Part shown: piece by piece, positions 10,785 to 29,116 of the stretch
How the letters are laid out: each line of letters begins with the position of its first letter
Numbering within the stretch: position 1 is the stretch's first letter
Source: a virus
Virus genome (UHGV): UHGV-0219389
Reading direction: 5' to 3' (one strand)
DNA length: 33,574 bases
The notes under the pieces: generated by a model
The model's input: only the letters and a program-made list of their open reading frames with translations
Told to the model about the DNA's origin: nothing
Databases searched by the model: none
Made by a program: the position numbers and the translations under genes

Positions 10785-10859
10785 TACAGACAGCCGCCAG
10801 TAGCGGCTGTTCTGCGTTATTCCCTCACGTCTTTTCACCTTCCCCGGAGGTTAACCACT

Positions 10860-13811: not shown

Positions 13812-14695
13812 TGTTTGCCGTACTGGGTGATATTGAGTTTGAGCTGATTACCTACTGGGACGGCTTCGAGGCCACGTTCGGCGTCGATTATGCGGAGCAT
13901 GCCCGCATCGGGGGTAAGCCTGGCCTGCAGTTCGTCGGCGACAGGCTGGACGAAATCCAGATAAGTCTGGTCTTCCATCAGCATTATTGTGTACCCGATG
14001 TGGAGCTGGCGAGACTGCGAACAACCATGAAAGCCCATCAGGCACTGGCGCTGGTCTTCGGCAACGGTGACTATCGTGGCTGGTTCGTGATTACCGATGT
14101 GACCGCAACCAGCGAGCAGACAGACAGCACCGGTAACGTGCTGGCTGTCAGTGCCACCGTGTCTCTCCGGGAATACACCGGTGATCCGAAAAATCCTCTG
14201 CAACCACCGGCAATACGCACGAAGCTCCCGGGTGTCGGGGCGGTCTCCGGTGCCATTCCTTCGCCTTCCGGGGTGGCGCAGTTCATCCGCAACGGCGTCA
14301 ACTATGCGAAACAGGCGCAGTCTGTACTCCAGACCACTATCAGCGCCGTTCGGGTGACACAGAAAATGAAGGATAACCCCGTTGTCGCACTGACCCGTGT
14401 GCCGGGGCTGATGAGCGGACTGGGTAATATCTCCGGGGCTCTGGGGAAAAGTGTTCCGGCGTTTAACGCACTCTCTGAATCCATGCCCGATGCCATCAGT
14501 CTGGCCAGAACAGCCAGCGAAGCAGCCACGTATGTACAGCAGGCACAGTCTGCGCTGAGTGGTGTGGACAAAAGAAATATTGCAGGTGCTCTGGATACCG
14601 TTTCCGGGCAGCTTAACGCCGCCGGCACAGCATTCAACCGCATGTCTCCGGGATTAAGTGCAATGGCCGCCAGAATACTGACGAGGAGTGTGTGA
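13811..14695 (+). CDS. DNA circularization protein N-like (Mu gp43 position)
   Basis: 294-aa ORF overlapping the tape measure stop. Confidence 0.5.
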   Translation: MFAVLGDIEFELITYWDGFEATFGVDYAEHARIGGKPGLQFVGDRLDEIQISLVFHQHYCVPDVELARLRTTMKAHQALALVFGNGDYRGWFVITDVTATSEQTDSTGNVLAVSATVSLREYTGDPKNPLQPPAIRTKLPGVGAVSGAIPSPSGVAQFIRNGVNYAKQAQSVLQTTISAVRVTQKMKDNPVVALTRVPGLMSGLGNISGALGKSVPAFNALSESMPDAISLARTASEAATYVQQAQSALSGVDKRNIAGALDTVSGQLNAAGTAFNRMSPGLSAMAARILTRSV

Positions 14696-14907
14696 TGTTT
14701 CTTGAACATGTTACCCGTGACGGAGAGCGCTGGGATTCGCTGGCATGGCAGTACTACGGTGACCCGCTGGGCTATCCCCGGATTATTGCCGCCAATCCGC
14801 ACGTGGCCATCACGCCGGTGCTGCCCTCCGGGCTGTTGTTACTGATCCCGGTGATTGAGGCTGAAGAAGCCCGTACAGAAGAGGATATTGCCCCATGGCT
14901 GAGATAA
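14692..14907 (+). CDS. tail protein X-like (LysM-like)
   Basis: 71-aa ORF with motif pattern W..L..YYG..........I..ANP typical of phage tail protein X. Confidence 0.55.
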   Translation: MMFLEHVTRDGERWDSLAWQYYGDPLGYPRIIAANPHVAITPVLPSGLLLLIPVIEAEEARTEEDIAPWLR

Positions 14908-16049
14908 ACAGCACTGCGCAAGTCACATCAGCGTTAACCGGCGTCAGCGATGTGCTGACACCGGTGTTCACTCTGTGGTATCTGCAGAAAAACATCACCT
15001 CTGATATCGCGCCTTATGTCACCCGTGTGACCTGGAGCGATAACATCAAAAATGAGTCCGATACCATTGAGGTGGAGCTGGACGACACCGATGGCCGCTG
15101 GCTGGATAAGTGGTATCCGGGCAAGGGTGACACGCTGACGCTGAAAATGGGCTATCAGGGCGAGAAGCTGCTGTCCTGCGGTACGTTCTCTATAGACGAG
15201 ATCGAAGTGAGTTCGCCCGCTTCCGTTGTTTCTATCCGTGGGGTGGCCACCTCGGTTAACAGTGCCCTGCGGACTAAAACCAGTCGTGGTTTTGAGAACA
15301 CCACGCTGGCAGCTGTTGCGGGGCGGATTGCCAGAAAGCACCGGCTGAAACTGGTGGGCAGCATTGAGTCCATCAGAATCGACCGGGTGACCCAGTATGC
15401 TGAAACCGACGTGGGTTTTCTGCGCCGGCTGGCCAGCGAGTATGGTTATGCAGTGAAAGTGGTCAGTGACCAGCTGATTTTTTCTCATCTGGCCACACTG
15501 CGCAGTCAGGAGCCGGTCAGGCAGTTAAAACCGCAGGATGTGGCCCGCTTTTCCCTGCGTGACACCATCAACCGGGTCTATAAATCTGCAAAGGTAAAAC
15601 ACCAGAAAAGCAGCAGTAAAAAACTGATCGTCTACGAAGCTGATGGTGGTACCCGTGAAAGCGACAAAAAGCTCAAAGGTGGTAAGGTTACCAGCGCTGA
15701 CTCACTTAAAGTTAACAGCCGCGTCAGCGACCCGGACAGTGCCCGGATTAAAGCGGATTCAGCACTGGCCAGACATAACGAATACCAGCAGAACGGCTCC
15801 CTGACGCTGACGGGAACACCTCAACTGACAGCAGGCAACAAAATTGAACTGGTGGGTTTTGGGCAGTTATCCGGGCCATGGCTCATAACCACTGCCCGCC
15901 ATGCGTTTGACCGTAACAGCGGCTACACCACAGAGCTGGAAGTGGCACGGGGGCCAGTCACAAGAGGGAAAAAACAAAAAACTCAGAAACTCACGGTTTA
16001 TCACCCGGATGGCAGTACATCGACGGTGATTAAGGAGAAGAAAAAATGA
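14895..16049 (+). CDS. baseplate hub / late control D-like protein (Mu P-like)
   Basis: 384-aa ORF in the expected position; size matches. Confidence 0.7.
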   Translation: MAEINSTAQVTSALTGVSDVLTPVFTLWYLQKNITSDIAPYVTRVTWSDNIKNESDTIEVELDDTDGRWLDKWYPGKGDTLTLKMGYQGEKLLSCGTFSIDEIEVSSPASVVSIRGVATSVNSALRTKTSRGFENTTLAAVAGRIARKHRLKLVGSIESIRIDRVTQYAETDVGFLRRLASEYGYAVKVVSDQLIFSHLATLRSQEPVRQLKPQDVARFSLRDTINRVYKSAKVKHQKSSSKKLIVYEADGGTRESDKKLKGGKVTSADSLKVNSRVSDPDSARIKADSALARHNEYQQNGSLTLTGTPQLTAGNKIELVGFGQLSGPWLITTARHAFDRNSGYTTELEVARGPVTRGKKQKTQKLTVYHPDGSTSTVIKEKKK

Positions 16050-16642
16050 CTGGTGTCACTCGTCAGGTCGGTACGGTCAGTGCCGTTGATGCCGACAGGG
16101 TTCAGGCCCGCGTTCGTCTGCCTGAATGCGATAACCTGCGCACAAACTGGCTTAACGTGCTGCAGCGCAATACCCAGGATAACAAAGATTACTGGCTCCC
16201 TGACGTGGGGGAGCAGGTTGAGGTGCTGCTCGATGCCAACGGCGAGGATGGTGTTATTCTGGGCGCGGTGTATTCAGACGTCGATAAACCACCGTTCAGT
16301 GACAAAAATATCCGGGGAACCCGGTTTGCTGATGGTGCAGAGTACAGCTACAACCGGAAGACGCACACTCTGATCATCCGGGGCGGCATTGAGCATATTG
16401 TCATTGAGTGTGGTGCTGATGTGGTATTGAAAACACAGAAAGCCACGATTGACGCACCGGAAACCGAACTTACCGGAGATCTGCGTGTCAGGGGTAAGCT
16501 GATTTACGAAGGAGGCATGGCGGGTTCTGGTGGTGAAGGTGTTACCGCGACCATCCATGGCAATATCGAGATTAAAGGGAATGCCCATGCCACGGGCAGT
16601 ATGTTGTCTGATGGCGAAAACTCCAGCCACCACTCCCACTGA
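16046..16642 (+). CDS. baseplate spike protein (gpV-like)
   Basis: 198-aa ORF with Gly-rich C-terminus, overlapping the upstream stop. Confidence 0.7.
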   Translation: MTGVTRQVGTVSAVDADRVQARVRLPECDNLRTNWLNVLQRNTQDNKDYWLPDVGEQVEVLLDANGEDGVILGAVYSDVDKPPFSDKNIRGTRFADGAEYSYNRKTHTLIIRGGIEHIVIECGADVVLKTQKATIDAPETELTGDLRVRGKLIYEGGMAGSGGEGVTATIHGNIEIKGNAHATGSMLSDGENSSHHSH

Positions 16643-16678
16643 GCTTTTTAAACGCCTTTAATATCAGCGTTCCCGCAC

Positions 16679-16696
16679 GGGGGCAATACTGCCCCC
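16679..16696 (+). promoter_or_regulatory. GC-rich hairpin (GGGGGCA-atac-TGCCCCC) ending 1 nt before the gpW-like start codon
   Basis: Perfect 7-bp inverted repeat abutting the ATG at 16697. Confidence 0.4.
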
Positions 16697-17044
16697 ATGA
16701 AAACAACCTCAGTATTCTGGCAACCAGCCCTGCAGGCTCCCGGCGAAATTGTCCGGGGGCTGGATGATATCCGGCAGGCGATTCAAATTATCCTGCGGAC
16801 TCCCCGCGGCAGCGACCCGCATCGCCCGGAGTTCGGCAGCAATCTGCATCTTTATATCGACTGGCCTGTAGACCGGGCCATTCCGCATGTGGTGCGCGAA
16901 TCCGTCGATGCCATCCGGCGCTGGGAGCCCCGCTGCCAGCTTATGTCAGTTAAACCCGCCGTCGACGGCGAACATCTTACGCTCCGGGTGAGCTGGAAAG
17001 GCTCAGACGGACAGACCCGGACTCAGGAGCTGCTATGGCGCTGA
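16697..17044 (+). CDS. baseplate wedge protein (GPW/gp25-like)
   Basis: 115-aa ORF in conserved position. Confidence 0.7.
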   Translation: MKTTSVFWQPALQAPGEIVRGLDDIRQAIQIILRTPRGSDPHRPEFGSNLHLYIDWPVDRAIPHVVRESVDAIRRWEPRCQLMSVKPAVDGEHLTLRVSWKGSDGQTRTQELLWR

Positions 17045-18138
17045 CAGAACCCGATTTTATTGAACGCGATGCCGACAAAATCACGGCAGAAATGATTGCG
17101 AAGTATGAAGCGGATACCGGCAAAACGCTGTACCCGGCACAGGCAGAACGTCTGCTGATTGATCTGTGGGCCTATCGCGAAATGCTGGTCAGGGTTGCGG
17201 TACAGGAGGCGGCGAAGCAGAATCTGGTCGCCTTTGCCCGTGAGCCGATGATTGATTACCTCGGTGAACTGGTTGGTGTATACCGTCTTGCCGCGCAGCC
17301 TGCCACCACCACGCTCCAGTTCTCCGTAGATGAGGCACTGGCCATTGATGTGCTGATCCCGGCAGGCACCCGCGTCAGCGCTTCCGACAGCGTTATTTTT
17401 GCCACCGATACAGATGTGGTACTGAAGGCCGGATTGCTGCTGGTCAATGTCACGTCCACCTGTACCGAACCCGGTACCGCTGGTAACGGCTGGCAACCTG
17501 CGCAGGTCAGTCAGTTACTCGATGAGATTGATAACGTCGACCTGCTGGTGAGCAATCTGACGGCCAGTTCCGGCGGTTCAGAACAGGAAGACGATGACAG
17601 GCTCCGGGAGCGTATCAGGCTGGCCCCGGAGTCATTCACCAATGCCGGAAGCCGTGGCGCATACCGCTTTCATGCCATGCAGGCCCATCCCAACATTGTC
17701 GATGTTGCTGTGCTTTCCCCGGTTCCCGGGACCGTAGATCTGTATCCGCTGCTCAGTACCGGTCTGCCGGACGGCGGTGTTCTCACGCTGGTAGAGAGTT
17801 TCTGCTCTGATGAGAAAGTCAGGCCACTCACTGATACAGTGCGGGCTAAAACACCAGTGAAGGTGGATTACACCATTGAAGCCAGGATTACGATCTATCG
17901 TGATCAGGATGCCAGGTCTGTAAAAGATGCCGCTAACAGCGCCATACAGAACTGGGTGGCATCACGTGCCGCCACGCTGGGGCGTGATATTGTCCCCAGC
18001 CAGATTATCAGTGCATTGTCCGTTTCCGGGGTGTACCAGGTTGAACTGGTGACACCGGCACTGAGGGTGGTGGCAGAAAACGAATGGGCAAACTGTACGG
18101 CGATCACACTTAACATGAGTGGAGTGTCTGATGGCTGA
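17035..18138 (+). CDS. baseplate J-like protein
   Basis: 367-aa ORF overlapping the gpW-like stop. Confidence 0.75.
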   Translation: MALTEPDFIERDADKITAEMIAKYEADTGKTLYPAQAERLLIDLWAYREMLVRVAVQEAAKQNLVAFAREPMIDYLGELVGVYRLAAQPATTTLQFSVDEALAIDVLIPAGTRVSASDSVIFATDTDVVLKAGLLLVNVTSTCTEPGTAGNGWQPAQVSQLLDEIDNVDLLVSNLTASSGGSEQEDDDRLRERIRLAPESFTNAGSRGAYRFHAMQAHPNIVDVAVLSPVPGTVDLYPLLSTGLPDGGVLTLVESFCSDEKVRPLTDTVRAKTPVKVDYTIEARITIYRDQDARSVKDAANSAIQNWVASRAATLGRDIVPSQIISALSVSGVYQVELVTPALRVVAENEWANCTAITLNMSGVSDG

Positions 18139-18709
18139 GCCATTACAACTCCCGCCACCGCTTGAGGGTGATACCAGTCTCAGGACGCTGGGAAGACTGG
18201 CAGGGCGGCTGGATAACATCGACCTGAGCGTACTGATGGTCTTTCTCGTCGATATCGTCGACAGTTCTGCGCTGCCATGGCTGTGCGAGCAGTTCTCACT
18301 GTCTGGCGATGGCTGGGAGCTGGCGGAATCGGACGATGTTCGCCGCATGCTTATAAAAGCAGCCATCGAACTGCACCGGTATAAAGGGACGCCGTGGTCA
18401 ATCCGGGAAGTTATCCGCCGTTTTGGCTTTGGTGAAGTGGATCTGATTGAAGGCACAGGTCGTCTCAGTTACGACGGCAATCGCAGCTATAACGGACTGT
18501 TTGTTCATGGAGATGCAGCCGCCTGGGCGGTTTATTGCGTTATTCTGAAACAGCCCATTACTAACGATCAGGCCGCGATGCTGCGTCAGACGCTCGCTGC
18601 ATTTGCACCGGCCCGCTGCCATCTGGCCAGCCTGGAGTATCAGTCTGTGGCCATTCGCTATAACAATACCGCCATCCATGATGGCAGTTATAACCACGGG
18701 AGCAGTTGA
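18131..18709 (+). CDS. tail protein (P2 gpI / Mu gp48-like)
   Basis: ATG at 18131 in frame with track ORF 18119..18709. Confidence 0.6.
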   Translation: MAEPLQLPPPLEGDTSLRTLGRLAGRLDNIDLSVLMVFLVDIVDSSALPWLCEQFSLSGDGWELAESDDVRRMLIKAAIELHRYKGTPWSIREVIRRFGFGEVDLIEGTGRLSYDGNRSYNGLFVHGDAAAWAVYCVILKQPITNDQAAMLRQTLAAFAPARCHLASLEYQSVAIRYNNTAIHDGSYNHGSS

Positions 18710-18711
18710 TT

Positions 18712-19875
18712 ATGGGAAACCTGAATGAAACAGAAAAGTGGGAAGAAAATATCTATCAACTGGAGACATCAGATCCGGTTCTGGGTGGTGCTGACGGGAT
18801 ATCAAATCGAGCCCCCCGGCAACTGGCAAACAGGACGAAATGGCTGAAGAAAAAAACGGAGGAAGCCGCACAGTCACTGGCTGAACACGTACGTTCCCGT
18901 AACCACCCGGACGCGACACTGACAGCTAAGGGGTTCACCCAACTGAGCAGTGCCACCAACAGCACCTCTGAAACGCTGGCCGCCACACCAAAAGCCGTCA
19001 AGGCTGCATACGACCTTGCAGCCGGCAAGGCGCCCGTCAGCCACACTCACCCGTGGAGTCAGATAACGGGAGTGCCTGCTGCCTCGCTGACGGCAAAAGG
19101 CACCGTACAACTGAGCAGCGCCATCAACAGCACGTCTGAAACGCTGGCCGCCACACCGAAAGCGGTCAAGGCTGCATACGATCTGGCAAACGGAAAACAA
19201 CCGGCAGATGCCACGCTCACTGCTCTGGCAGGACTTGCCACTGCAGCAGATCGGTTGCCTTATTTTACCGGAGCAGACCGCGCAGCGCTGGCAACCCTTA
19301 CAGCTATTGGTCGCGCTATTATCGCTAAGGGCAGTATAAAAGATGTCCTCAATTACCTTGGTTTGGGGGAAGGCTCTGCATTGCCTGTTGGTGTACCGGT
19401 TCCGTGGCCCACCGCCACACCGCCAGCAGGCTGGTTAAAGTGCGACGGGCGCGCCTTTACAAAAGAACAATATCCTGTTCTGGCCAGAGTCTACCCGACC
19501 CTCCGTCTTCCCGATTTACGCGGTGAGTTTATCCGTGGATGGGACGACGGGCGCAAAGTTGATACAGGACGTAAGTTGCTGTCCGCACAAGGGGCAACGC
19601 TGTTAAGAACAGCAATGCTGGATTATTATAACCAGGACACTACGGGAACCTCGGGGATAGTCGGCATGGGATTCAACAATGAAGATTCCATTACAGACCT
19701 TCGTGAGGGCAGCTTTAAAATGCCGGACGGGACAACATTCAGCGATCCTGTCATGGCAATGTCAGACAATGGTATGCAGGCTACTATTCTGACCTCTATC
19801 AGAAGCGGGTATGCGAAGGGTATCACTGTCAGACCCCGTAGCATTGCACTTAATTACATTGTGAGGGCAGTTTAA
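18712..19875 (+). CDS. tail fiber protein (constant N-part plus invertible C-terminal variant Sv)
   Basis: ATG at 18712; internal repeats TAKG(F/T)xQLSSA(T/I)NSTSETLAATPKAVKAAYDLA; C-terminal part from about 19360 lies in the invertible segment. Confidence 0.8.
   Translation: MGNLNETEKWEENIYQLETSDPVLGGADGISNRAPRQLANRTKWLKKKTEEAAQSLAEHVRSRNHPDATLTAKGFTQLSSATNSTSETLAATPKAVKAAYDLAAGKAPVSHTHPWSQITGVPAASLTAKGTVQLSSAINSTSETLAATPKAVKAAYDLANGKQPADATLTALAGLATAADRLPYFTGADRAALATLTAIGRAIIAKGSIKDVLNYLGLGEGSALPVGVPVPWPTATPPAGWLKCDGRAFTKEQYPVLARVYPTLRLPDLRGEFIRGWDDGRKVDTGRKLLSAQGATLLRTAMLDYYNQDTTGTSGIVGMGFNNEDSITDLREGSFKMPDGTTFSDPVMAMSDNGMQATILTSIRSGYAKGITVRPRSIALNYIVRAV
18921..19200. repeat. intragenic tail-fiber repeat, 2 copies about 168 bp apart
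   Basis: Duplicated 30-aa motif in the fiber shaft. Confidence 0.7.
19346..19371. other. gix-like crossover site, left (tcctcaattacc-TT-GGTTTGGGGGAA)
   Basis: 26-bp site with inner half-site matching the Hin/Gin/Cin half-site pattern GGTTTnnnnnAA; central TT. Confidence 0.55.
19358..19437. repeat. 80-bp perfect inverted repeat, left copy
   Basis: Reverse complement identical to 20883..20962; encodes the shared peptide GLGEGSALPVGVPVPWPTATPPAGWL. Confidence 0.9.
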
Positions 19876-20489
19876 TGAGTAACACTGCAGTTCTGGATGA
19901 AAACGGTATCGCCACTGTAGCGGGCGATATCACTGTATATCACTATGACGAGGAAACCCGGGAATACACCTCATCCTCTGTGGAGTATCTCGCCCTTGGG
20001 GTGGGTACTCCGGCACATTCGTGCGCCGATGCACCGCCGGAGGCAATTTCGGGTTACGTGGTTTGCCGGACTGCCACGCTGAACGGGTGGGAGCATGTGC
20101 CTGATCACCGCGGCGAGACGGTATACAGCACGGAGAACGGTAACCCCGTTCTGATTACCCAACCGGGTGATTACCCGGCGGACACCACCACAAAACAGCC
20201 TGCCACACCATGGGATACCTGGAACGGTGAAGCGTGGGTAACTGATACTGAACGGCATAGAGCCGCAGAGCTGGAGACTGCCAGACTGCAACGCCAGAAA
20301 CGGGTGGATCAGGCGATGAAGTCCATCGACCTCATCAACCTCAAACTGCGGGCAGGTCGCAGTCTGAAACCAGAAGAAACGGCAAAACTGAACGCCGTGC
20401 TGGATTATATCGACGAGCTGAACGCACTGGATATCAGCAAGGCACCTGAAATCAGCTGGCCGGAAGCGCCACTGGCGCTTGCCGGCTGA
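19875..20489 (+). CDS. tail fiber assembly protein (Tfa/U-like)
   Basis: 204-aa ORF, start overlapping the fiber stop. Confidence 0.75.
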   Translation: MSNTAVLDENGIATVAGDITVYHYDEETREYTSSSVEYLALGVGTPAHSCADAPPEAISGYVVCRTATLNGWEHVPDHRGETVYSTENGNPVLITQPGDYPADTTTKQPATPWDTWNGEAWVTDTERHRAAELETARLQRQKRVDQAMKSIDLINLKLRAGRSLKPEETAKLNAVLDYIDELNALDISKAPEISWPEAPLALAG

Positions 20490-20495
20490 ACGGTA

Positions 20496-20962
20496 TCACG
20501 CCGCCCTCACGATATAGTTAAATGCGATATTGCGGGGGCGAGCTGATACATAAGCCCACCAGTCATATCTTTGTGCACCTTTAGAGGATGCATCAAATAT
20601 CCACTTTTTGCCATTTATGACCCCCAGTTGATTAGAGGTTAAAGCGTCACCAAATCCGTATTGTGTAGAGCCGAGCGAACTGATATCTCCGGTATCATTA
20701 TCATCAAAACCGGATACGATAGTCCCTTCCTGAAATGAAAGTAGCGCACGCCCGGTATCAACCTTGCGACCACCGTCCCATCCACGGATAAACTCACCGC
20801 GCAAATCGGGAAGACGGAGGGTCGGGTAGACTCTGGCCAGAACAGGATATTGTTCTTTGGTGAACGTAGCTCCGTTGCACTGTAACCAGCCTGCTGGCGG
20901 TGTGGCGGTGGGCCACGGAACCGGTACACCAACAGGCAATGCAGAGCCTTCCCCCAAACCAA
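20496..20962 (-). CDS. alternative tail fiber C-terminal segment (Sv'), promoterless
   Basis: Minus-strand frame whose N-terminal 26 aa equal residues of the + strand fiber at the inverted repeat, then diverges; both variants end ...NYIVRA. Confidence 0.7.
20883..20962. repeat. 80-bp perfect inverted repeat, right copy
   Basis: Reverse complement identical to 19358..19437. Confidence 0.9.
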
Positions 20963-20974
20963 CGTTTATCTCTC
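20949..20974. other. gix-like crossover site, right (TTCCCCCAAACC-AA-cgtttatctctc)
   Basis: Inner half-site TTCCCCCAAACC matches the invertase half-site pattern; central AA is the reverse complement of the left-site TT. Confidence 0.55.
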
Positions 20975-21029
20975 AAATCCTCCCCACATTATCTCAGTAC
21001 TTTAACCACTCAAAAGGGAGTATTTTTAA

Positions 21030-21601
21030 TGCTGATTGGCTACATACGTGTGTCAACAAATGACCAAAACACAGATTTGCAACGCAAAGCATTAATGTGC
21101 GCAGGATGTGAACAGATTTTTGAGGACAAAATGAGCGGAACCAAGTCGGAACGTCCAGGCCTGAAACGCGCTTTAAAGTGCCTTAAAAGAGGGGATACAT
21201 TGGTGGTCTGGAAGCTGGATCGGTTGGGTAGAAGAATGAAACACCTCATTGCTCTCACAGAAGAGCTACGCGCAAAAGGTGTCAATTTTCGCAGTCTGAC
21301 GGATTCAATCGATACCAGCACTCCGATGGGAAGGTTCTTTTTTCATATGATGGGTGCACTGGCAGAAATGGAGCGTGAACTGATAGTTGAGCGCACGCTG
21401 GCAGGACTGGCTGCTGCGCGAGCACAAGGGAGAGTTGGAGGACGTCGCCCGAAACTGACGAAGGAGCAGCATGAGCAGATCGCAAGATTGCTCCAGAAAG
21501 GGTATGACAGAAAGCGGCTGGCAATTATCTATGATATTGGACTGTCAACGATCTACCGCTACCACCCTGTTGGGACTGTCATAACGCAACCTGAAATGTA
21601 A
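21030..21601 (+). CDS. gin: DNA invertase (Gin/Pin/Cin/Hin family serine recombinase)
   Basis: N-terminal MLIGYIRVSTNDQNTDLQ catalytic-serine motif and C-terminal HTH; start at ATG 21030 inside track ORF 20900..21601. Confidence 0.85.
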
Positions 21602-21679
21602 TTCTTTTTCAAATAATGAAACGCCGCGTGGATGCCATTTATCGCACAAGATAGAGTGCATTTATCGCGCGGCGCATCA
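21602..21679. repeat. putative Mu-type right end with repeated transposase-binding-like motifs
   Basis: Direct repeats CATTTATCGC at 21636 and 21659, GAAACGCC motif at 21618, sequence ending ...GCGCGGCGCATCA; resembles the Mu right end from memory. Confidence 0.45.
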
Positions 21680-21741
21680 TACAGCCCTTTAGCCTCCAGT
21701 TCTTCCGCTTTGCTGTCTTTAATCATGCTGTACCTCACTGC

Positions 21742-22167
21742 TTAAAACGGTATTCCGTCCCCGTACGGATCATCGTGCTGGCCTGTCTGTTGTTTTGCCC
21801 TGTTCAGTGCGTCAGTAGCCTGGCCCTGCTGGCCTTTTTTGCCGCCCGGTCGCGCCGTTCGCGCACTGATTACGCTGTCTGCGATGACCTGCCAGCCCTG
21901 CCGCGTTTCGCCGTTCTGGCCTGTCCACTGGCTTACCTGCATGTTACCCGCCACGCTCACCAGTTCGCCTTTCTGGTGTTTTGCCAGTGCGTCGGCCTGT
22001 CTGCCAAACGCCAGGACGGATAACCACATCGTCGCCGTTCCGTCATCTGCCTGGCTGCATGGCAGGGGAACCGCCATACTCGCCATCGCCATTTGTGTTC
22101 CCTTGCTGGTGGTCTTTAACTGCGGGTCAGCCACCAGCCGCCCGTAAGCCGCTATCTGTGCTGTCAT
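21742..22167 (-). CDS. SSB-like single-stranded DNA-binding protein
   Basis: 141 aa with Gly/Gln-rich linker and C-terminal acidic tail ending DGIPF, as in SSB (DDDIPF). Confidence 0.55.
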   Translation of the reverse strand: MTAQIAAYGRLVADPQLKTTSKGTQMAMASMAVPLPCSQADDGTATMWLSVLAFGRQADALAKHQKGELVSVAGNMQVSQWTGQNGETRQGWQVIADSVISARTARPGGKKGQQGQATDALNRAKQQTGQHDDPYGDGIPF

Positions 22168-22227
22168 GCTGTCTGTTCTCCGGTTTTAACGTTGATTGTT
22201 ACGCTTGTTTACACCCTTATGGTGAAA

Positions 22228-22376
22228 TTCTGCGGGTTATAATCGCACTTTTGCGGGTTATAACTGCCGTTTTGCGGGTTATTTTGGGTATTTTACGGGT
22301 TACGATTTTCCTGCCATTCCTTTAATAATCATATGGATACTGATTTATCCACAGAAATAACCCGCATAACCCGCAA
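22228..22376. repeat. iteron array (candidate replication origin)
   Basis: Four direct copies of (T)TTTGCGGGTTAT spaced exactly 21 bp (22231, 22252, 22273, 22294), an AT-rich spacer, then two inverted copies ATAACCCGCA (22357, 22366). Confidence 0.7.
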
Positions 22377-22403
22377 AATTTTCACCCTACACGCGAGAAA
22401 AAA

Positions 22404-24530
22404 TTAATCTTCTTCGCTTTCTGGCTGGAACATCAGCACGTAAAAAACATGCTGCTTCCCCCCAATTTTGCCGAGCGCCTTTTTCTTGTAACGGCGATCG
22501 TTACCCGCTTCCAGCATTCCGGCAGCACTCAACGCGCGGGCAAAGTGAGACGGATTAAATCCCTGTGCTATCTCACCCTCAAATACATGCGGGAACGTGT
22601 AAAAACGGAACTCGTCATCTTCGTTTCTGATACTCCCCTTTCTGTATCCGGCAAGCTCTTTAATCGGTAAATCACGCTCGTCAGAGTTGGGCCAGGGAAG
22701 GTATCTGCTGAATCCGAACGACGCTAAAAAAGCCTCTGCCTGTTCAACCATCTGTTTAAACTCCCTGTTACCCGTGCCGAACTCCTTCACCCAGGCATTA
22801 AAATTATGCTGTATGGCATCGCGGCATTCCTGCTCATCCCAGCCAGTAACATGACCTGAAAGCACAAGCGCGGCCTCCAGTATGGCAAATCGCTCCCCCA
22901 CACGGTGAACCTGTTCGCCGTAGCTCTCCGGTATCAGGTTGCGCCACCGCTCACGGCATGTCCTTACCGTGTCCTTTGCCTCCTGCTGGTGTTCTGCCAG
23001 CCATTTAACCCACTCACGACCCGCCGCCCCGTGATTTGCTGTCCAGGCATCCTTTAACGCGTCTGCGTGCGCCTTTCCGGTGCTGTATTCGTGAAATTGC
23101 GTGGCTTTTTCCATCGGAACGTTAAGCAGGCGGACAAGCTGCCCCGCTTTGACTTTTATCCCCTCCGTTTTGAGGAATGTCTCAACGTCCATTTCTCCGG
23201 TGCTGATTGCCACCGTTCGCCAGTGTTTTATCTCCCTGTTGCCGCCGTCCTTTGCCCCCTGTAATTTCCCGGAACCGTTAAACAGCGTATAGGCTGACGT
23301 GGACACCTCCCGCGCGTTTCCGGCCTGGCCTATTTCATCCAGGGGTAAAAGCCCGTCATTGTGTGCCTCTGCTTCGTTGGCGATACCTAACGCTGTGCCG
23401 TACCAGGTCAGCCGCTGCGCGTCCGGCTCTCCCCATAAACTTGATGCGATGTTCTGCGTTGTGGTCTTACCTGCCGATGACTGTTCGAAAAGATGTACCC
23501 CGAAGCCGTCAGCGCCCACCAGCCCGATTAATGGTGCGGATAACGATACCGCCACCCCCAGCATCATGGACGGATTACCACCAGCCAGTCGCGCCACGGT
23601 GTCGCGCCAGCCCTCCGCCGTTCCTGCCACGGAATAGCCATTAACAGCAGCAGTTTTTCCGGTAAACAGGACTGGCTTTTCGCAATCACCAATGACCGAA
23701 CCGTCCGGCATGATGTACGCGCCAAAATGCCAGCCCGTTGTTGTGCTTAACTGCCATTCCTCATGGCTTCCGCTTAACTGCATCCAGTCAGCCAGGATTG
23801 CCCTGTATTTACCGTTGGTTGTTACGTTCAGTCCGTGGTCTTTCAGCAGCCGCCAGCCGTCACGGTCGCCAATGCCACCGCACGGAACCGCCATTGTGAT
23901 GACTTCATGATTTGCTGGCTTTTTCCAGCGCATCACGCGGTAATGTTCTTTGCCGATTGTCCCCGTTCCCAGCAGTTCAAGCGGGGAACATAACCACGTC
24001 TCAGGCCGGATAATTTCGCCTGACTGCTTGTCCACTTTTGGCGTAACCCAGAAAACACCATCGGCGCGGCTTTCAACGCGGGGCTTTAATTCATCATCAC
24101 CCGGGCTTTCTGTGATTTTTTTCTTTAAGGGCAACACCAGACTTTCCCCGCGCTCGTATTCGTCTTTGAGGCGAGGCAACTGGTCGGATAAATCCGCCGG
24201 GCTGGTGTCAGTTATCCCCGCGTATTCGTATACGGTCTTCACGCCAGCCACAGCCAGCAACGTGACGATCTGTGTAAGGCTACGTTCAGTGATGTGCCCT
24301 GCGCGGTAAATACGCACACACTGACGGCTATCATCAATAATTTGATAACCGGTAATATCTTTCAGGTGTTCATCTGACAGAACGACAGGCGGCACATTGT
24401 CGGCGGCAATATGCTTACCTGCCCATTCCTGCCACTCTTTCGCATGGCTCCACGCATCACTACCCGCAAAGATGATAACCTCCGTCATTTTGTCGGCTGG
24501 CTGGTGCTTTAAGTTTGGTGCGCGCTTCAT
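22404..24530 (-). CDS. primase-helicase-like replication protein (P-loop NTPase)
   Basis: 708 aa with P-loop-like FEQSSAGKTT; placed beside the iterons as replication initiators are in P4-like and PICI-like elements. Confidence 0.55.
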   Translation of the reverse strand: MKRAPNLKHQPADKMTEVIIFAGSDAWSHAKEWQEWAGKHIAADNVPPVVLSDEHLKDITGYQIIDDSRQCVRIYRAGHITERSLTQIVTLLAVAGVKTVYEYAGITDTSPADLSDQLPRLKDEYERGESLVLPLKKKITESPGDDELKPRVESRADGVFWVTPKVDKQSGEIIRPETWLCSPLELLGTGTIGKEHYRVMRWKKPANHEVITMAVPCGGIGDRDGWRLLKDHGLNVTTNGKYRAILADWMQLSGSHEEWQLSTTTGWHFGAYIMPDGSVIGDCEKPVLFTGKTAAVNGYSVAGTAEGWRDTVARLAGGNPSMMLGVAVSLSAPLIGLVGADGFGVHLFEQSSAGKTTTQNIASSLWGEPDAQRLTWYGTALGIANEAEAHNDGLLPLDEIGQAGNAREVSTSAYTLFNGSGKLQGAKDGGNREIKHWRTVAISTGEMDVETFLKTEGIKVKAGQLVRLLNVPMEKATQFHEYSTGKAHADALKDAWTANHGAAGREWVKWLAEHQQEAKDTVRTCRERWRNLIPESYGEQVHRVGERFAILEAALVLSGHVTGWDEQECRDAIQHNFNAWVKEFGTGNREFKQMVEQAEAFLASFGFSRYLPWPNSDERDLPIKELAGYRKGSIRNEDDEFRFYTFPHVFEGEIAQGFNPSHFARALSAAGMLEAGNDRRYKKKALGKIGGKQHVFYVLMFQPESEED

Positions 24531-24841
24531 TTTGCCTTTCTCCGTTCACGAATAATTTCACGTACTGCCTTAATGCGTTCCATACCTGTAACGCGCATGA
24601 TTCTGTCGATGTCGCTTAAGTTCGCTGGTGGTGCTTTGCTTACCAGGGTGAATTCACTCTCAAAACGCATATGTGACGACACGCAGGGATGCGCATAACC
24701 TTCGCGGATATAGGTCACGCGAAAATCATCGACGGTTTTAATCGTTATCGTGCTGCCGTATTTATCCTGGAAAATATCGCCGGGGCGGATTTCAGGCCGA
24801 GCGGAGCCGCTGGCAGTAAAGCCAGAATTTTTCTTTTTCAT
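24527..24841 (-). CDS. hypothetical protein, coupled to the primase gene
   Basis: 104-aa ORF overlapping the primase start by 4 bp. Confidence 0.45.
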   Translation of the reverse strand: MKKKNSGFTASGSARPEIRPGDIFQDKYGSTITIKTVDDFRVTYIREGYAHPCVSSHMRFESEFTLVSKAPPANLSDIDRIMRVTGMERIKAVREIIRERRKAK

Positions 24842-24847
24842 GTTTTT

Positions 24848-25066
24848 TTACTCCAGAGGCCGCTTTTTAGCGAAGAGTTCAATATCAGATGTCAGAGAAA
24901 CCTGTGTATTTGCCAGGTCTAACAACAAAGAAATAAGAATTTCCTCTCTGCTATCTGATTTATCGGTGCTAAGGCTGTTCATCCACATATTGACGACTTC
25001 CCTGATTTTTTTCGCAGAGTGCATGGCTTCAAATGCCAGGTCTTCAATATCATGTTTATTTCGCAT
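24848..25066 (-). CDS. hypothetical small protein
   Basis: Internal ATG of track ORF 24848..25132, chosen to limit overlap with the upstream gene. Confidence 0.35.
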   Translation of the reverse strand: MRNKHDIEDLAFEAMHSAKKIREVVNMWMNSLSTDKSDSREEILISLLLDLANTQVSLTSDIELFAKKRPLE

Positions 25067-25268
25067 AATCGCCCCCGCGTAACTGGTCTGCACTAACACC
25101 CGATTTAGTGAGCATTTCAGAAAATCCCGCAAGAGTGCTGATAAATTCGTTTTCCATTAAACGGCACTGGCATTTAACCCGGCCTTTTTCCAGATACACC
25201 AGTACGCACCCCGTATAATCTGACGGCACATTCAGCACTACAGATAAGTGCGCTTCATTATTATTCAT
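25056..25268 (-). CDS. hypothetical small protein
   Basis: 70-aa ORF in the same operon. Confidence 0.35.
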   Translation of the reverse strand: MNNNEAHLSVVLNVPSDYTGCVLVYLEKGRVKCQCRLMENEFISTLAGFSEMLTKSGVSADQLRGGDYAK

Positions 25269-25497
25269 GGCTCACCACCTCCATATCAGCCATGATAATT
25301 TTGCTGGCCTCATTCAGTGCCATATCAGCACTAAGTTGCATTACAGCCAGTGAATGAGGAACGAAAGCCCCGGCATATTCTGTTTCGCTGGTGGCGTGCT
25401 TATGCGCCTTGTCTGCGATAACAGAAATATCAATCAGCGCGTGCATCAGCGTTTTGATGGCTTCGGCGGCTGCGTCCGGACGGGTGTTATTGCACAT
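25261..25497 (-). CDS. hypothetical small protein
   Basis: 78-aa ORF overlapping its neighbours at both ends. Confidence 0.35.
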   Translation of the reverse strand: MCNNTRPDAAAEAIKTLMHALIDISVIADKAHKHATSETEYAGAFVPHSLAVMQLSADMALNEASKIIMADMEVVSHE

Positions 25498-25693
25498 GGA
25501 GCACCCCCTGACGAATACGGGCGGCGAATACCATCACGCAGCCAGCCGGGGATTGCTGGCGTGCTTCCTGTTCGCTGGTGGCCACGATGTGAATCACGCG
25601 CGGTTGTGCGGTGCTCAGGGCGATAAAACGCCAGATGTATTTATTCAGGTTGTGCGAGTCCCGCCCTTGCGGGTGTGTGGTATGATTTCTCAT
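25487..25693 (-). CDS. hypothetical small protein, first gene of the leftward operon
   Basis: 68-aa ORF from ATG 25693 with GAGG RBS; this is the C-terminal part of the 301-aa track ORF, whose upstream part crosses operator palindromes. Confidence 0.4.
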   Translation of the reverse strand: MRNHTTHPQGRDSHNLNKYIWRFIALSTAQPRVIHIVATSEQEARQQSPAGCVMVFAARIRQGVLHVQ

Positions 25694-25770
25694 AGCTACC
25701 TCGATACTCTTGCTATCGTTGGTGGTTAGACGCCCTGCATGTGTTGCGAGCACTGCGGGGCGTTGCTTAA

Positions 25771-25826
25771 TTTGAGTGACAAAACTCAAACTGTGCGCAC
25801 AGATTAAAATCATGTGTGCGCACATG
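25771..25826. promoter_or_regulatory. divergent promoter/operator region with palindromes
   Basis: TTTGAGT-N6-ACTCAAA at 25771-25790; perfect palindrome TGTGCGCACA at 25792-25801 and again at 25815-25824; half-site TGTGCGC near 25862. Confidence 0.6.
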
Positions 25827-25898
25827 TCAATACTTAACATCTCATTTTTTTTGCTGTATTGTGTGCGCCCATAAAGTCCATTTAAGTGAGGTGCATCA

Positions 25899-26096
25899 AT
25901 GTCTAGCGGTAACACAAACAACAAATCAGCAAAGAAAAATATTCGATTCCCACATGAGCTTATAGATGGGATTGATGCCAGCGTTGAACAAGAAAAATTA
26001 ACTAATCCTAGTGCTAATTTTTCCGCATGGGTCTTAGATGCCTGTGGACGCAAATTAAAATATGAACAGCGCCGGAAGGCCAAAGAATCAGAATAA
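25899..26096 (+). CDS. ribbon-helix-helix (Arc/Mnt-like) putative repressor
   Basis: 65 aa; segment KNIRFPHELIDGIDASVEQEKLTNPSANFSAWVLDAC has the beta-strand/helix/helix pattern of Arc (RWPREVLDLVRKVAEENGRSVNSEIYQRV, from memory). Confidence 0.5.
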   Translation: MSSGNTNNKSAKKNIRFPHELIDGIDASVEQEKLTNPSANFSAWVLDACGRKLKYEQRRKAKESE

Positions 26097-26138
26097 TCAC
26101 TATCAGCGCCGTGGTGTGAGTAACTACGGCGCATTGCT

Positions 26139-26327
26139 ATGCAGGACAACACAATGACCGATAAAGAATTGACCAAAACATTATCACCGACACGGAAAAG
26201 ACGGCGCAGAAAGATAGAGCATGAATCAGAAAGATTCGCACCTTGTTCGTTTGCTCTTGAGAAATTCCTTAAAGAGCGCAGGAAAAAGCTCTCGTTGCAA
26301 ACCTTGGAACGAACCAAATCTGACTGA
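26139..26327 (+). CDS. hypothetical basic protein
   Basis: 62-aa Lys/Arg-rich ORF downstream of the RHH gene; weak RBS. Confidence 0.25.
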   Translation: MQDNTMTDKELTKTLSPTRKRRRRKIEHESERFAPCSFALEKFLKERRKKLSLQTLERTKSD

Positions 26328-26460
26328 TCACATTGCCCACCAGCCGCAAATGTGGCATTGTTGGTGATGCTTTTGTTTTCCCTTGTTCCCACTGGCTACC
26401 CTTTTGCGGTCGCCTTTGTTTTGCCTGTTATCCGGCAATAGTGGCGCTTCGTCACCTGTC

Positions 26461-26549
26461 TGATATAATTCCACTGCTTATATTCATTTTTTGCGCAGTA
26501 GGTTAATTGTTCGCAAGGGCGCTCCGGCAACGGGGCGCTTTTTGTTTTT
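26461..26549 (+). ncRNA. candidate small RNA (extended -10 promoter to intrinsic terminator, about 70 nt)
   Basis: TGaTATAAT at 26461-26469; stem-loop TTGCG..CGCAA; terminator GCGCTCCG-GCAA-CGGGGCGC + TTTTTGTTTTT at 26519-26549; no ORF with RBS between. Confidence 0.35.
26519..26549 (+). terminator. intrinsic terminator (8-bp stem, GCAA tetraloop, U-tract)
   Basis: GCGCTCCG / CGGGGCGC stem with one G-U pair, followed by TTTTTGTTTTT. Confidence 0.6.
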
Positions 26550-26707
26550 ACCCACCAGCACAATAAAAATCTTCATTTTCCATTTTTGTAAAATTTCATG
26601 CTTTCCGGACGACTGGTCATATGTCATTTTTTAGCAGAAGATTTTGCCTTGCTGGTGGGTAGCTTCCCGGTCAACACGATGTACCGTATAATCAACACCG
26701 CGTGTGG

Positions 26708-27292
26708 TTACTGAATACGCTCACCAAAGTAAAACTCAGGCTGGTATTCACGTATCAGCCTTTTTTCTTCTTCCTCCAGCTCACGCTTTTTGCGCTTACA
26801 TGCCTGTAGCTCCCTCCCCTTCTCGCTGGCACTTATCTGATATTGCTCTTTGCGGCGGGAAAAATCCTGTAATGCGCCCCACGGGATACCATAAGCCCCC
26901 GTTTTTCTGATACCCGGTATCACATTTCTGAATACCCAGTTACTGAAACGATGGGCGAACGTGCCAGGAGTAGCAGCTTTGCGACTTCTGGCAATCAGCT
27001 TGTAAAAGCCAGATTCAGAAACGACGCTATGATTTGGATTTCCGCGAATACCGTAAGTTAAAGTTACGGTATTACTTTCATCATCATCCAGAGCTTGCAA
27101 CGCCATGCGTGAATTGGATAATTCAAGCGCCGCACAAACATCCTTTGCAACAAACCACGGATCGCCGTTCAGATACACCACACGAACATCCACGCCATCA
27201 AAACGTAGAACGACCTGATCACGAATATCGCAGAATTTTTTCACTGGACGTGCATTCCCCTTGCCCATCATGGCAATATTTTTATTCATCAC
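26708..27292 (-). CDS. Bro-N domain antirepressor-like protein
   Basis: N-terminal motif DGDPWFVAKDVCAALEL characteristic of Bro-N; 194 aa; GAGG RBS. Confidence 0.65.
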   Translation of the reverse strand: MMNKNIAMMGKGNARPVKKFCDIRDQVVLRFDGVDVRVVYLNGDPWFVAKDVCAALELSNSRMALQALDDDESNTVTLTYGIRGNPNHSVVSESGFYKLIARSRKAATPGTFAHRFSNWVFRNVIPGIRKTGAYGIPWGALQDFSRRKEQYQISASEKGRELQACKRKKRELEEEEKRLIREYQPEFYFGERIQ

Positions 27293-27308
27293 TTTCTACC
27301 TCACATAC

Positions 27309-27336
27309 AAAAAACCCCGCATTGCGTGGTGCGGGG
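27309..27336 (-). terminator. intrinsic terminator after the AlpA-like gene
   Basis: Minus-strand stem CCCCGCA / TGCGGGG followed by TTTTTT. Confidence 0.55.
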
Positions 27337-27346
27337 TTGTCGGTAA

Positions 27347-27625
27347 TTACTTATTGGCGTTTTTGTATGGGCTGTTTACTTCCTTTACTCCTGGCGGATG
27401 CATAACCCACCAGAGCACATCAGAGAGCAACCAGGAAACAGACACTTTCCCTAAATGAGCACGAGCAGGAAATGCTCCCTCCTGTTCAAGTACCCAACGT
27501 CTGCTTCTTGAAAGCCCGGTACGATTGGCACACTCATGTTCGCGTATACGGCGATCATACGGTTCGCCATGCTCTTTCAGAATCTGAATGCGTTCTTCGG
27601 GTGTAGGATAAATAAATTTTTGCAT
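27347..27625 (-). CDS. AlpA-family HTH regulator
   Basis: Start at internal ATG 27625 (MQKF...) with AGGTGA RBS; TGLSRS..W HTH pattern. Confidence 0.55.
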   Translation of the reverse strand: MQKFIYPTPEERIQILKEHGEPYDRRIREHECANRTGLSRSRRWVLEQEGAFPARAHLGKVSVSWLLSDVLWWVMHPPGVKEVNSPYKNANK

Positions 27626-27637
27626 AAAAATATCACC

Positions 27638-27665
27638 TATAAAAAAACCCGCCAAAAGACGGGTT
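27638..27665 (-). terminator. intrinsic terminator-like hairpin between the two AlpA-like genes
   Basis: Minus-strand stem AACCCG / CGGGTT followed by a 7-nt U-run. Confidence 0.45.
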
Positions 27666-27688
27666 GATTATATCTCATTTAATTTAGC

Positions 27689-29111: not shown

Positions 29112-29116
29112 GTGAT

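Follow-up and report, generated by a model that had tools for sequence, protein, structure and literature searches.

Does the tail-fibre locus of virus genome UHGV-0219389 carry a DNA switch that still flips, and what would flipping change for the phage? Invertible fibre switches are a textbook means by which temperate phages hedge between hosts, and an initial annotation of this locus had proposed a switch of the Gin type. We analyzed the whole stretch of 33,574 nucleotides (hereafter the window) together with related prophages in E. coli genomes. The locus is very probably a programmed inversion switch of the Mu G-segment type at the right end of a Mu-like transposable E. coli prophage, and it is almost certainly a genuine, working DNA flip-switch that swaps the tip of the prophage tail fibre.

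The fibre locus and its prophage

The features on which the analysis draws are, in order along the window:

18712..19359, + strand: Sc, constant N-terminal part of the fibre (Phage_fiber_2, E 2e-39)
19346-19371: left crossover site, TCCTCAATTACC-TT-GGTTTGGGGGAA, its outer half-site within the Sc coding sequence
19355..19583: left inverted-repeat arm, encoding the shared collar-domain start of Sv
19360..19875, + strand: Sv, variable fibre C-terminus now fused to Sc (171 aa; collar PF07484, E 5e-15)
19360..20960: invertible segment of 1,601 bp, bounded by the two central dinucleotides
19875..20489, + strand: tail-fibre assembly (chaperone) gene (Caudo_TAP PF02413, E 2e-26)
20496..20960, - strand: Sv', alternative fibre C-terminus (154 aa; collar PF07484, E 9e-16)
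20737..20965: right inverted-repeat arm
20949-20974: right crossover site, TTCCCCCAAACC-AA-CGTTTATCTCTC, identical in the relatives whose crossover was mapped to the core
21029..21601, + strand: serine DNA invertase of the Gin/Cin/Hin/Pin family (190 aa; Resolvase and HTH_7 domains)
21047..21118: putative recombinational (Fis) enhancer within the start of the invertase coding sequence, proposed from homology with the enhancer annotated in cin
21602..21679: right terminus of the Mu-like prophage, ending ...GCGCGGCGCATCA and holding two CATTTATCGC motifs

Only the late half of the phage and its right end fall within the window. DNA from position 21680 onward is that of the insertion target: homology to all relatives stops at 21679, and different host DNA follows in each genome. 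For this reason, the genes for an SSB and a DUF927 protein that lie beyond the invertase were rejected as parts of the same phage. The same right end adjoins aroA, dgcQ and ybjC in relatives and a PerC-family gene in the window, where this copy of the prophage sits in the PerC-family gene of another mobile element. The relative in E. coli SCU-172 encodes a DDE transposase, an ExeA-type ATPase, Mor, Gam and gp16, and it splits dgcQ, with TG..CA ends and an ACTGG(T) duplication. The characters of a Mu-like transposable phage (a transposase, an ATPase, varied insertion sites, a target duplication and TG...CA ends) were thus all found, in the relatives.

Sc and Sv are read from a single ORF (18706/18712-19875), in which Sc contributes two 56-aa Phage_fiber_2 repeats and the codon boundary between 19359 and 19360 coincides with the crossover. 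Both possible fusions are open and in frame: counted from the TTG at 18706, Sc-Sv has 389 aa and Sc-Sv', obtained by in-silico inversion, has 372 aa. The initial proposal of two different fibre C-termini, Sv on the + strand and Sv' on the - strand, was borne out, both being in frame with Sc and both being collar-domain tips. The collar domain with which both tips begin is related to the T4 gp37/gp12 fibre tips. Sv consists of the collar domain and a distal tip and resembles the T4 gp37 tip (2XGF) and a short tail fibre (9CUY); Sv', which is silent in the present orientation, matches PDB 9CUY as well (E 3e-17). The two have in common the first ~70 residues of the variable part, which make up the collar domain, and the last ~12, and they differ in the distal region. 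A C-terminal motif, RPR(N/S)IA(F/L)NYIVRA, is common to Sv, Sv' and SvA, a third cassette present in a sister prophage, and tips homologous to Sv and Sv' end the fibres of HK97, HK106 and P2-like phages. The distal region of related fibres contacts the receptor. Judging from where the variable region lies and from its resemblance to fibre tips that bind receptors, the swap would alter host range.

One point of this layout is unusual and had been overlooked in the initial annotation, namely that the segment has a single fibre-assembly gene. This gene is co-oriented with Sv, and its stop codon and that of Sv', which converge, are 6 bp apart; no tfa-like ORF was found after Sv' in the flipped orientation. 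Phage 500465-1, Mu and P1 each have two assembly genes, one per tip, and homologous tips in other phages normally have tfa next in order. A co-oriented assembly gene for each tip (S-U / S'-U'), which we take as typical of such switches and not strictly defining, is absent here. After inversion the gene would be antisense to late transcription, which counts against the main reading: Sc-Sv' might not fold well unless it needs no chaperone or receives one in trans. A search for a solved-structure relative of the assembly protein gave none below E=0.38.

Crossover sites, invertase and putative enhancer

Two 26-bp sites in inverted orientation are present at 19346-19371 and 20949-20974, as had been proposed. 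Each has a 2-bp crossover flanked by 12-bp half-sites, and on alignment of the sites the central dinucleotides agree, TT in the left one corresponding to the reverse complement of AA in the right one. The suggested likeness to hix, gix and cix sites holds for the central TT/AA and for the inner half-sites, which are identical to each other and match the Mu/P1 half-site consensus at 9/12 positions; it is weak in the outer half-sites, which match at only 6/12 and 5/12, although they keep the ACC/ACG core. The weakness of the outer half-sites counts against the main reading. When the core pattern AAACCNNGGTTT was scanned across the window with up to two mismatches, 17 matches were found against 14.9 expected, which is not significant; the sites are therefore defined by their context and not by the motif. 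The scan gave no hint of a multi-site shufflon in the window, as only the two known sites among the 17 pattern matches have the right context.

The inverted-repeat arms that accompany the sites are 229 nt long and 90% complementary, and their longest perfect run is 80 nt (19358-19437). A perfect inverted repeat of 80 nt cannot arise by chance in 33.6 kb. The initial annotation had placed this repeat just inside the sites; in fact it starts at the central dinucleotide and takes in the inner half-sites. Its claim that the repeat encodes the same 26 residues in both tips was correct: 78 coding nucleotides of the perfect repeat give GLGEGSALPVGVPVPWPTATPPAGWL in Sv and in Sv'.

The presence of a serine invertase gene with the YIRVSTNDQ motif downstream of the segment was confirmed, and both domain and structure matches place its product in the Gin family. 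The protein contains Resolvase (PF00239, E 6e-51) and HTH_7 (PF02796, E 1e-12) domains and matches the Gin structures 4M6F/3UJ3 over residues 1-181 with E 1e-92, compared with 7e-33 for gamma-delta resolvase. It is identical to Mu Gin at 138/181 residues (76%) and to Cin at 132/181 (73%). Its distance from the segment, initially given as 70 bp, is approximately right: the ATG at 21029 lies 54 bp past the right site and 67 bp past the crossover centre. A mutated catalytic serine, which had been named as a sign of an inactive enzyme, was looked for; Ser9 is intact in YIRVSTNDQ, and R7, R42 and the DRLGR motif are also present. It has been reported that Hin residues K47, K/R48 and K/R51, together with Q151, R154 and L155, are uniquely conserved in Fis/enhancer-dependent invertases (PMC3798978). 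The enzyme of the window has all of these subclass-specific residues, as K46/R47/K50 in helix B and as Q150-x-x-R153-L154 of the EQIARLL stretch in helix 1 of the DNA-binding domain (Gin numbering, equal to Hin minus 1), and we infer that it depends on Fis. At position 20 it has K in place of the N shared by Gin, Cin and the enzyme of a prophage in the ST131 clone. A simple consensus scan, itself uninformative, found no sigma-70-like promoter upstream of the invertase gene, which counts against the main reading, and an equally uninformative scan of this kind found no terminators around it.

A search for an enhancer in the first 200 bp of the invertase gene had been suggested, and we carried one out in silico. 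The P1 record annotates an enhancer at coding nt 19-90 of cin, and over the homologous stretch the window is 75-76% identical, with the invariant blocks ATCAACAAATGA and GCAGGATGTGA lying at coding nt 24-35 and 73-83, ~49 bp apart. In addition, synonymous conservation is in excess in the putative enhancer (6/18 versus 5/77, p=0.005), the unusually conserved synonymous sites falling in the two blocks. The search thus gave a homologous span and codon conservation, but exact Fis cores could not be assigned: the window's gene and gin both have G-N13-C candidates centred at coding nt 29 and 78, and the first is missing in cin. These observations point, indirectly, to a putative enhancer within the initial ~90 nt of the coding sequence, on which inversion may depend.

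According to the mechanism that we propose, invertase dimers would bind the two 26-bp sites, Ser9 would cleave at the central TT/AA, and strand exchange by subunit rotation followed by religation would leave the 1,601-bp segment flipped. In the present orientation the late operon would yield Sc-Sv and the fibre-assembly protein; after inversion, Sc-Sv' would be made in place of Sc-Sv.

The segment occurs in both orientations in natural genomes

Comparison with complete genomes provided evidence of inversion. In E. coli SCU-172, the region corresponding to window positions 19358-20965 is inverted at 99.88% identity between collinear flanks (99.2% and 98.3%), with a 100% identical invertase, including K20, and identical crossover sites. 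Three complete genomes contain the flipped junction of the window, built in silico, at 100% identity, and many more contain it at 99.5%. No complete E. coli genome was found to share the insertion junction of the window itself, all matches beginning at window position 21680, and orientation at a single locus was instead examined in a sister prophage inserted at aroA. The invertase of the sister prophage differs only at K20N, and its left and right sites are those of the window. Both orientations were found at this one chromosomal locus, with 293 records flipped and 265 native.

The sister prophage also allowed the crossover to be placed. The sibling isolates U13A and U14A differ solely by a 1,615-bp inversion of a segment that is 100% identical; the outer half-sites stay and the inner half-sites swap, which puts the crossover inside the 12-bp core AAACG-TT-GGTTT. 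An in-silico product of the sister prophage with the crossover at the central dinucleotide matched at 100.0% over 2,062 nt in the 15 matches listed. Furthermore, the record PV468777.1 shows a product in which the right site has recombined with a Sc-proximal site that has the sequence of the left site of the window, and this exchange is also joined exactly at the core. PCR-confirmed reversible switching within one isolate has been described for a prophage called 'Entero_P88' (preprint bioRxiv 10.1101/2022.05.07.487787); PV468777.1 bears the same name, and the prophage of the preprint appears to be the aroA-site sister prophage. Taken together, these results demonstrated that, in nature, both orientations of this segment exist alongside the same enzyme, as seen between SCU-172 and the window and at the sister locus, with the crossover at the site core. 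The proposal that the segment inverts was upheld in this way, and, to judge from these relatives, the window's own lineage probably switches too.

Could the locus nevertheless be a frozen relic, descended from an active switch and no longer flipping in this genome, perhaps for want of invertase expression? The poor outer half-sites, the K20 of the invertase, the lack of a promoter-like site in the simple consensus scan, and the fact that no complete E. coli genome has the same insertion for comparison would all fit such a history. However, the opposite orientation of SCU-172, at 99.88% identity and with the identical K20 enzyme and sites, implies a recent flip by exactly this enzyme and site set; moreover, the window's left site has recombined in PV468777.1, and the catalytic and regulatory hallmark residues are all intact, making a relic very unlikely. 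We give almost no credence to inversion by RecA-dependent homologous recombination between the 229-bp repeats instead of by the invertase at its sites, even though repeats of 90% identity with an 80-nt perfect stretch are possible substrates in principle. Crossovers of that kind would be scattered along the arms, which in the sister prophage differ at many positions (~88% identity), yet the segment of U14A and U13A is 100% identical up to the site and exchange fell within the 12-bp core. The exact match of the central-dinucleotide product and the joining of the second event type, Sc-proximal by right site, precisely at the core also argue against RecA.

A further question is whether the switch, though real, has a main effect other than swapping two working host ranges. 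We consider this unlikely, and likewise, taken jointly, its two variants, in which the flipped state would be a fibre-defective, low-infectivity OFF state or would place fusions on the lysogen surface that block other phages. The single tfa, antisense once inverted, speaks for such an effect when set against the one gene per tip of Mu, P1 and phage 500465-1, as does the usual position of tfa next to homologous tips. There is also a precedent for an adsorption block, as inversion of the e14 P segment by PinQ yields a chimeric fibre protein (StfE2) that blocks T2 adsorption (PMC12529663), and the ST131 sister prophage still flips despite a fibre gene annotated by RefSeq as a pseudogene. On the other hand, every relative examined has an intact Sv' ORF, and in phage 503046 Sv' has diversified (64% identity) without a tfa, as would be expected of a functional receptor-binding tip and not of a decaying one. 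The shared C-terminal motif of Sv, Sv' and SvA suggests that one chaperone, possibly from another prophage, might serve all tips, and expression of late fibre genes in lysogens has no supporting evidence. There is a small chance that the locus is asymmetric by design, with Sv and Tfa forming a chaperone-assisted state and Sv' (SvA in relatives) lacking a dedicated chaperone. Inversion would then toggle two modes and not two equivalent host ranges, and Sv' could be a self-folding collar-type tip, that is, a chaperone-independent fibre class; the alternatives are a low-infectivity flipped state or a receptor blocker in the lysogen like StfE2 under PinQ.

Significance and relation to known systems

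A programmed inversion switch swapping two fibre tips, the reading we prefer, is a textbook mechanism in a new example; it adds no new mechanism or principle. Its interest lies in part in its distribution: the prophage family occurs widely in E. coli, with the pandemic ST131 clone among its hosts, and is marked here as bearing an active recombinase. This recombinase makes assemblies of otherwise identical strains differ, which matters for SNP and structural-variant calling. It also bears on annotation, as the orphan cassettes are routinely labelled as 'phage tail protein' genes or as pseudogenes. In addition, natural polymorphism in the half-sites provides a base-level map of the crossover from public genomes, and the single assembly gene raises the small question of whether collar-type fibre tips need a chaperone.

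Of the known systems, the G segment of Mu with its invertase Gin, its gixL/gixR sites, the sis enhancer and Fis offers many parallels. Both switches occupy the right end of a transposable phage; in both, baseplate genes J-I are followed by Sc and the invertible Sv, and the downstream invertase reads away from the segment. Both have 26-bp sites with a 2-bp crossover, a distance of 67 bp from crossover centre to invertase start (gixR-gin in Mu) and invertases that are 76% identical over 181 aa; where the invertase gene begins, the window has a putative counterpart of the enhancer. Unlike Mu, in which the segment is 3 kb and has two assembly genes (U, U'), the window has a 1.6-kb segment with one, and its collar-domain tips are unrelated to Mu S/S'. 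At their centre its sites have the TT/AA of cix, where Mu has TC/GA, and the outer half-sites are far weaker than those of Mu. Furthermore, com/mom are absent after the invertase, the phage ending 78 bp past the stop codon, and the early region of the SCU-172 relative is on the opposite strand to its late genes. The C segment of P1 has an invertase of the same family (Cin, 73% identity), a central TT dinucleotide (cixL is CAATCCTAAACC-TT-GGTTTAAGAGAA) and an enhancer annotated within the invertase gene at coding nt 19-90. However, cin lies upstream and reads toward the segment, cixL overlaps the 3' end of cin, and the P1 segment is 4.2 kb with U and U'.

The ST131 prophage at the aroA site (PV468777.1) belongs to the same phage lineage, with ~97-98% DNA identity, an invertase one residue apart, and the same left and right sites, Sv, tfa and Sv'. 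It differs in having the third cassette, SvA, and a third site between Sc and Sv, with three cassette orders observed, which points to multiple-inversion behavior; its fibre gene carries the RefSeq pseudogene label, and its chromosomal site is aroA and not a PerC-family gene. In the e14 P segment with Pin, and in the PinQ and PinR systems of E. coli K-12, a Gin-family invertase likewise flips alternative side-tail-fibre C-termini in a prophage, but these are lambdoid cryptic prophages with other fibre families; for systems of the e14/PinQ type, a chimeric fibre protein is reported to act in defence (PMC12529663). Finally, Hin of Salmonella, acting at hix sites, is an enzyme of the same subclass and mechanism whose Fis/enhancer-contact residues are conserved here; Hin flips a promoter, whereas the segment described here carries coding cassettes.

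Anatomy of the invertible segment and its invertase

Window positions 17800-22400 were read directly, and ORFs and repeats were listed mechanically. The repeat finder returned a single outstanding inverted repeat, with arms of 229 nt (19355-19583 and 20737-20965) that are 90% complementary and, compared position by position, contain a perfect run of 80 nt at 19358-19437. The two inverted 26-bp sites claimed in the initial annotation are present at its outer edges, and the segment and its surroundings contain the following features:

18706 (TTG) or 18712 (ATG) to 19875, + strand: fibre ORF (ORF listing)
19346-19371: left crossover site, TCCTCAATTACC-TT-GGTTTGGGGGAA, outer edge of the inverted repeat
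19875-20489, + strand: fibre-assembly protein, Caudo_TAP (Pfam)
20949-20974: right crossover site, TTCCCCCAAACC-AA-CGTTTATCTCTC, outer edge of the inverted repeat
21029-21601, + strand: serine invertase, Resolvase and HTH_7 (Pfam)
21047-21118: putative recombinational enhancer, 5' end of the invertase gene (homology to the annotated Cin enhancer)

The 80-bp perfect repeat had been placed just inside the sites; it exists, but the inner half-sites belong to it. Its translation confirmed that the same 26 residues open both alternative fibre C-termini, Sv (+) and Sv' (-). Because a codon boundary of the fibre ORF falls exactly at 19359|19360, in-silico inversion of 19360-20960 swaps Sv (171 aa) for Sv' (154 aa) in frame behind the constant N-terminus Sc, giving fusions from the TTG of 389 aa (Sc-Sv) and 372 aa (Sc-Sv').

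The downstream gene does encode a serine invertase: it matched solved structures of the phage Mu invertase Gin at E 1e-92 over residues 1-181, far better than resolvases, with identities of 138/181 to Gin and 132/181 to Cin of phage P1, and it retains Ser9 and R42. It has been reported that Fis/enhancer-dependent invertases uniquely conserve basic residues in helix B and Q, R and L residues in DBD helix 1 (McLean et al., PMC3798978); the window enzyme keeps K46, R47 and K50, and Q150, R153 and L154. Its ATG at 21029 lies 67 bp from the crossover centre, rather than the 70 bp first given, and in Mu the gin start is likewise 67 bp from the centre of gixR. The gix sites in the Mu record read TTATCCAAAACC-TC-GGTTTACAGGAA and its inverted partner, and P1 cixL (CAATCCTAAACC-TT-GGTTTAAGAGAA) has its TT centre in common with the window site. 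Against a consensus built from six Mu/P1 half-sites, the inner half-sites scored 9/12 and the outer ones, which are weak, 6/12 and 5/12. Apart from the extent of the perfect repeat, the spacing to the invertase and these weak outer half-sites, the initial annotation describes the sequence correctly.

The Cin enhancer is annotated in the P1 record at cin coding nt 19-90. The corresponding window stretch, 21047-21118, shares 75-76% identity with gin and cin, and two blocks within it, ATCAACAAATGA and GCAGGATGTGA, are invariant in all three genes. When four diverged invertase genes were compared at codons with a conserved amino acid only, the identical codon was used in all four at 6/18 positions inside the stretch vs 5/77 outside (Fisher p=0.005). 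These invariant codons cluster in two groups ~49 bp apart, which is what two predicted Fis sites overlaid on the coding sequence would produce. The enhancer search suggested in the initial annotation, run in silico, yielded indirect evidence for a putative Cin-type element, and we infer that the window switch depends on Fis and an enhancer. Codon 20 (21086-21088), which lies within the putative enhancer between its two conserved blocks, encodes Lys (AAA) in the window and in SCU-172, an E. coli genome with a close relative of this prophage, and Asn in Gin, Cin, phage 500465-1 and the ST131 enzyme.

Natural recombinants and the point of crossover

A query for the flipped right junction, assembled in silico from the reverse-complemented Sv, the site and the invertase in that order, was run against complete E. 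coli genomes. Three genomes matched all 856 nt at 100% identity, and many others matched at 99.5%. SCU-172 is one genome carrying this junction: its flanks are collinear with the window (1114-19188 at 99.2%, 20748-21679 at 98.3%), window 19358-20965 is matched in reverse orientation at 99.88% identity, and the invertase is 100% identical. One enzyme and one set of sites are thus found with both orientations.

A sister prophage next to aroA is common in E. coli ST131. The left and right sites are the same as in the window, and its invertase departs from the window enzyme at residue 20 alone; in addition, a third cassette (SvA) and a third site, GGCATAGAAACG-TT-GGTTTAGGAGAA, are present between Sc and Sv (comparison stretches L001 2315-4382; L005; L008/L009; L013). 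Composite queries differing only by the orientation of the Sv-tfa-Sv' block (tfa, the fibre-assembly gene) beside the invertase, phage end and aroA matched 293 records in the flipped and 265 in the native form at coverage of at least 80%; the matches listed were 100.0% identical and positioned over aroA. Public genomes of sister prophages display three cassette orders, as in multiple-inversion systems, and removing the DNA between the two directly repeated sites from the three-cassette form gives the two-cassette form of the window. The fibre gene of the ST131 prophage is a RefSeq pseudogene without its N-terminus (L001 1711-2760; L002; L008; L009) and the cassettes are still inverted, so that the invertase appears to have persisted beyond the phage function that it served.

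At the switch, the sibling urine isolates U13A and U14A (chromosomes of 5,061,273 and 5,061,272 bp) carry 100% identical segments of 1,615 bp in opposite orientations. The inner half-sites, which are polymorphic (GGTTTAGGAGAA and GGTTTGGGGGAA), were exchanged and the outer half-sites unmoved, which places the exchange inside AAACG-TT-GGTTT. RecA-type exchange between the repeat arms would instead scatter crossovers along arms that are only ~88% identical in the sister prophage, and confinement to the site core argues strongly against it. In PV468777.1, SvA is inverted beside the invertase with the junction TTCCCCCAAACC-AA-CGTTTATCTCTC, an arrangement produced by recombination of the right site with the Sc-proximal one, which is identical to the window left site. 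This record is named 'Entero_P88', and a preprint on ST131 wound isolates described reversible fibre-segment inversions in an 'Entero_P88' prophage, with PCR and restriction digestion confirming them in a single isolate (bioRxiv 10.1101/2022.05.07.487787); the shared name and ST131 host suggest that the two are the same prophage. That the switch is a mere relic is excluded for the prophage family by the natural recombinants and by the PCR-reported switching in what is probably the sister prophage. Taken together, and in support of the initial interpretation, the anatomy, the enzyme family and the natural recombinants demonstrate Gin-type inversion, which would be expected to change host range.

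The prophage right end and its insertion target

The relatives are Mu-type transposable prophages. The SCU-172 prophage carries genes for Mor, gp16, Gam, a MuB-like ATPase and a DDE transposase, and interrupts dgcQ; it has TG...CA ends and a target duplication, ACTGG(T). The right end (...GCGCGGCGCATCA) recurs beside aroA, dgcQ or ybjC in different genomes; in the window it falls at 21679, right after the switch, so that the switch occupies the position of the Mu G segment. Mu has com/mom beyond this segment, whereas the window lacks com/mom after the switch. Two copies of CATTTATCGC (21636-21645, 21659-21668) lie just inside the right end and the left end of the SCU-172 relative also has GATAAATG-type motifs; such end motifs are probably transposase-binding repeats.

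The DNA from 21680 on corresponds to an unrelated island (94-98% identity). The Mu-like prophage interrupts a PerC-family regulator gene (window 21559-21738, - strand, and 21680 onward): a minus-strand ORF opens with MIKDSKAEELEAKGLY, which in E. coli O177:H21 is the N-terminus of PerC, before it enters the phage end at 21679. This insertion was absent from all complete E. coli genomes searched. The island (within 21680-30310) encodes an integrase, Bro-N, DUF4222, a DUF927 replication protein, SSB and PerC, and its integrase gene (27888-29147, -) adjoins a truncated terminase large-subunit gene (29117-30310, -). The same island in O177:H21 (L011, NZ_CP016546.1, 4576-21781) is flanked by the 5' part of a prophage terL and by a 3' fragment of it ('TerL endonuclease'), and has capsid, portal, protease and terminase genes of its own. 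It looks like a satellite-like element integrated in the terL of another prophage, in which case the window would hold three nested mobile elements. An iteron-like array of direct and inverted TTTTGCGGGTTAT(A) copies at 21-bp spacing (22228-22381), between the SSB and DUF927 genes, is probably the island's replication origin.

Fibre tips, their assembly gene and known switches

The fibre protein contains Phage_fiber_2 repeats and a Collar domain, and Sv' a Collar domain (Pfam). Sv and Sv' are each similar to the collar region in the T4 fibre tips gp37 and gp12 and in 9CUY (554-aa short tail fibre), and Sv' homologues form fibre ends in HK97, HK106 and P2-like phages. The Phage_fiber_2 unit in the constant part spans 168 nt (56 aa; window 18919-19196, L004 17992-18576, L005 3298-4050). 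The window has two copies, and both SCU-172 and AR_0015 have more, so that fibre length is polymorphic among relatives (387 aa in the window vs 594 and 664 aa).

The segment's one fibre-assembly gene has the orientation of Sv and a stop codon 6 bp from that of Sv'; the ORF listing of the segment gave no tfa-like gene 3' of Sv' after in-silico inversion. This asymmetry is common to all examined relatives of the prophage lineage. In one of them, phage 503046, Sv' has diverged (64% identity); this divergence points to a functional rather than a decaying Sv'. The C-terminal motif RPR(N/S)IA(F/L)NYIVRA is common to all three tips (Sv, Sv' and SvA), and it is therefore conceivable that one chaperone, shared or acting in trans, could serve several tips.

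Fibre-swapping inversions are a recognised class, widely predicted in systematic surveys (PMC9881135), and the window switch is a further example of this well-known type. Its interest lies chiefly in the clean population-level record of switching and in the single-chaperone asymmetry: each tip has its own fibre-assembly gene in Mu, P1 and the P2-like phage 500465-1, whereas the window segment has a single gene for two.
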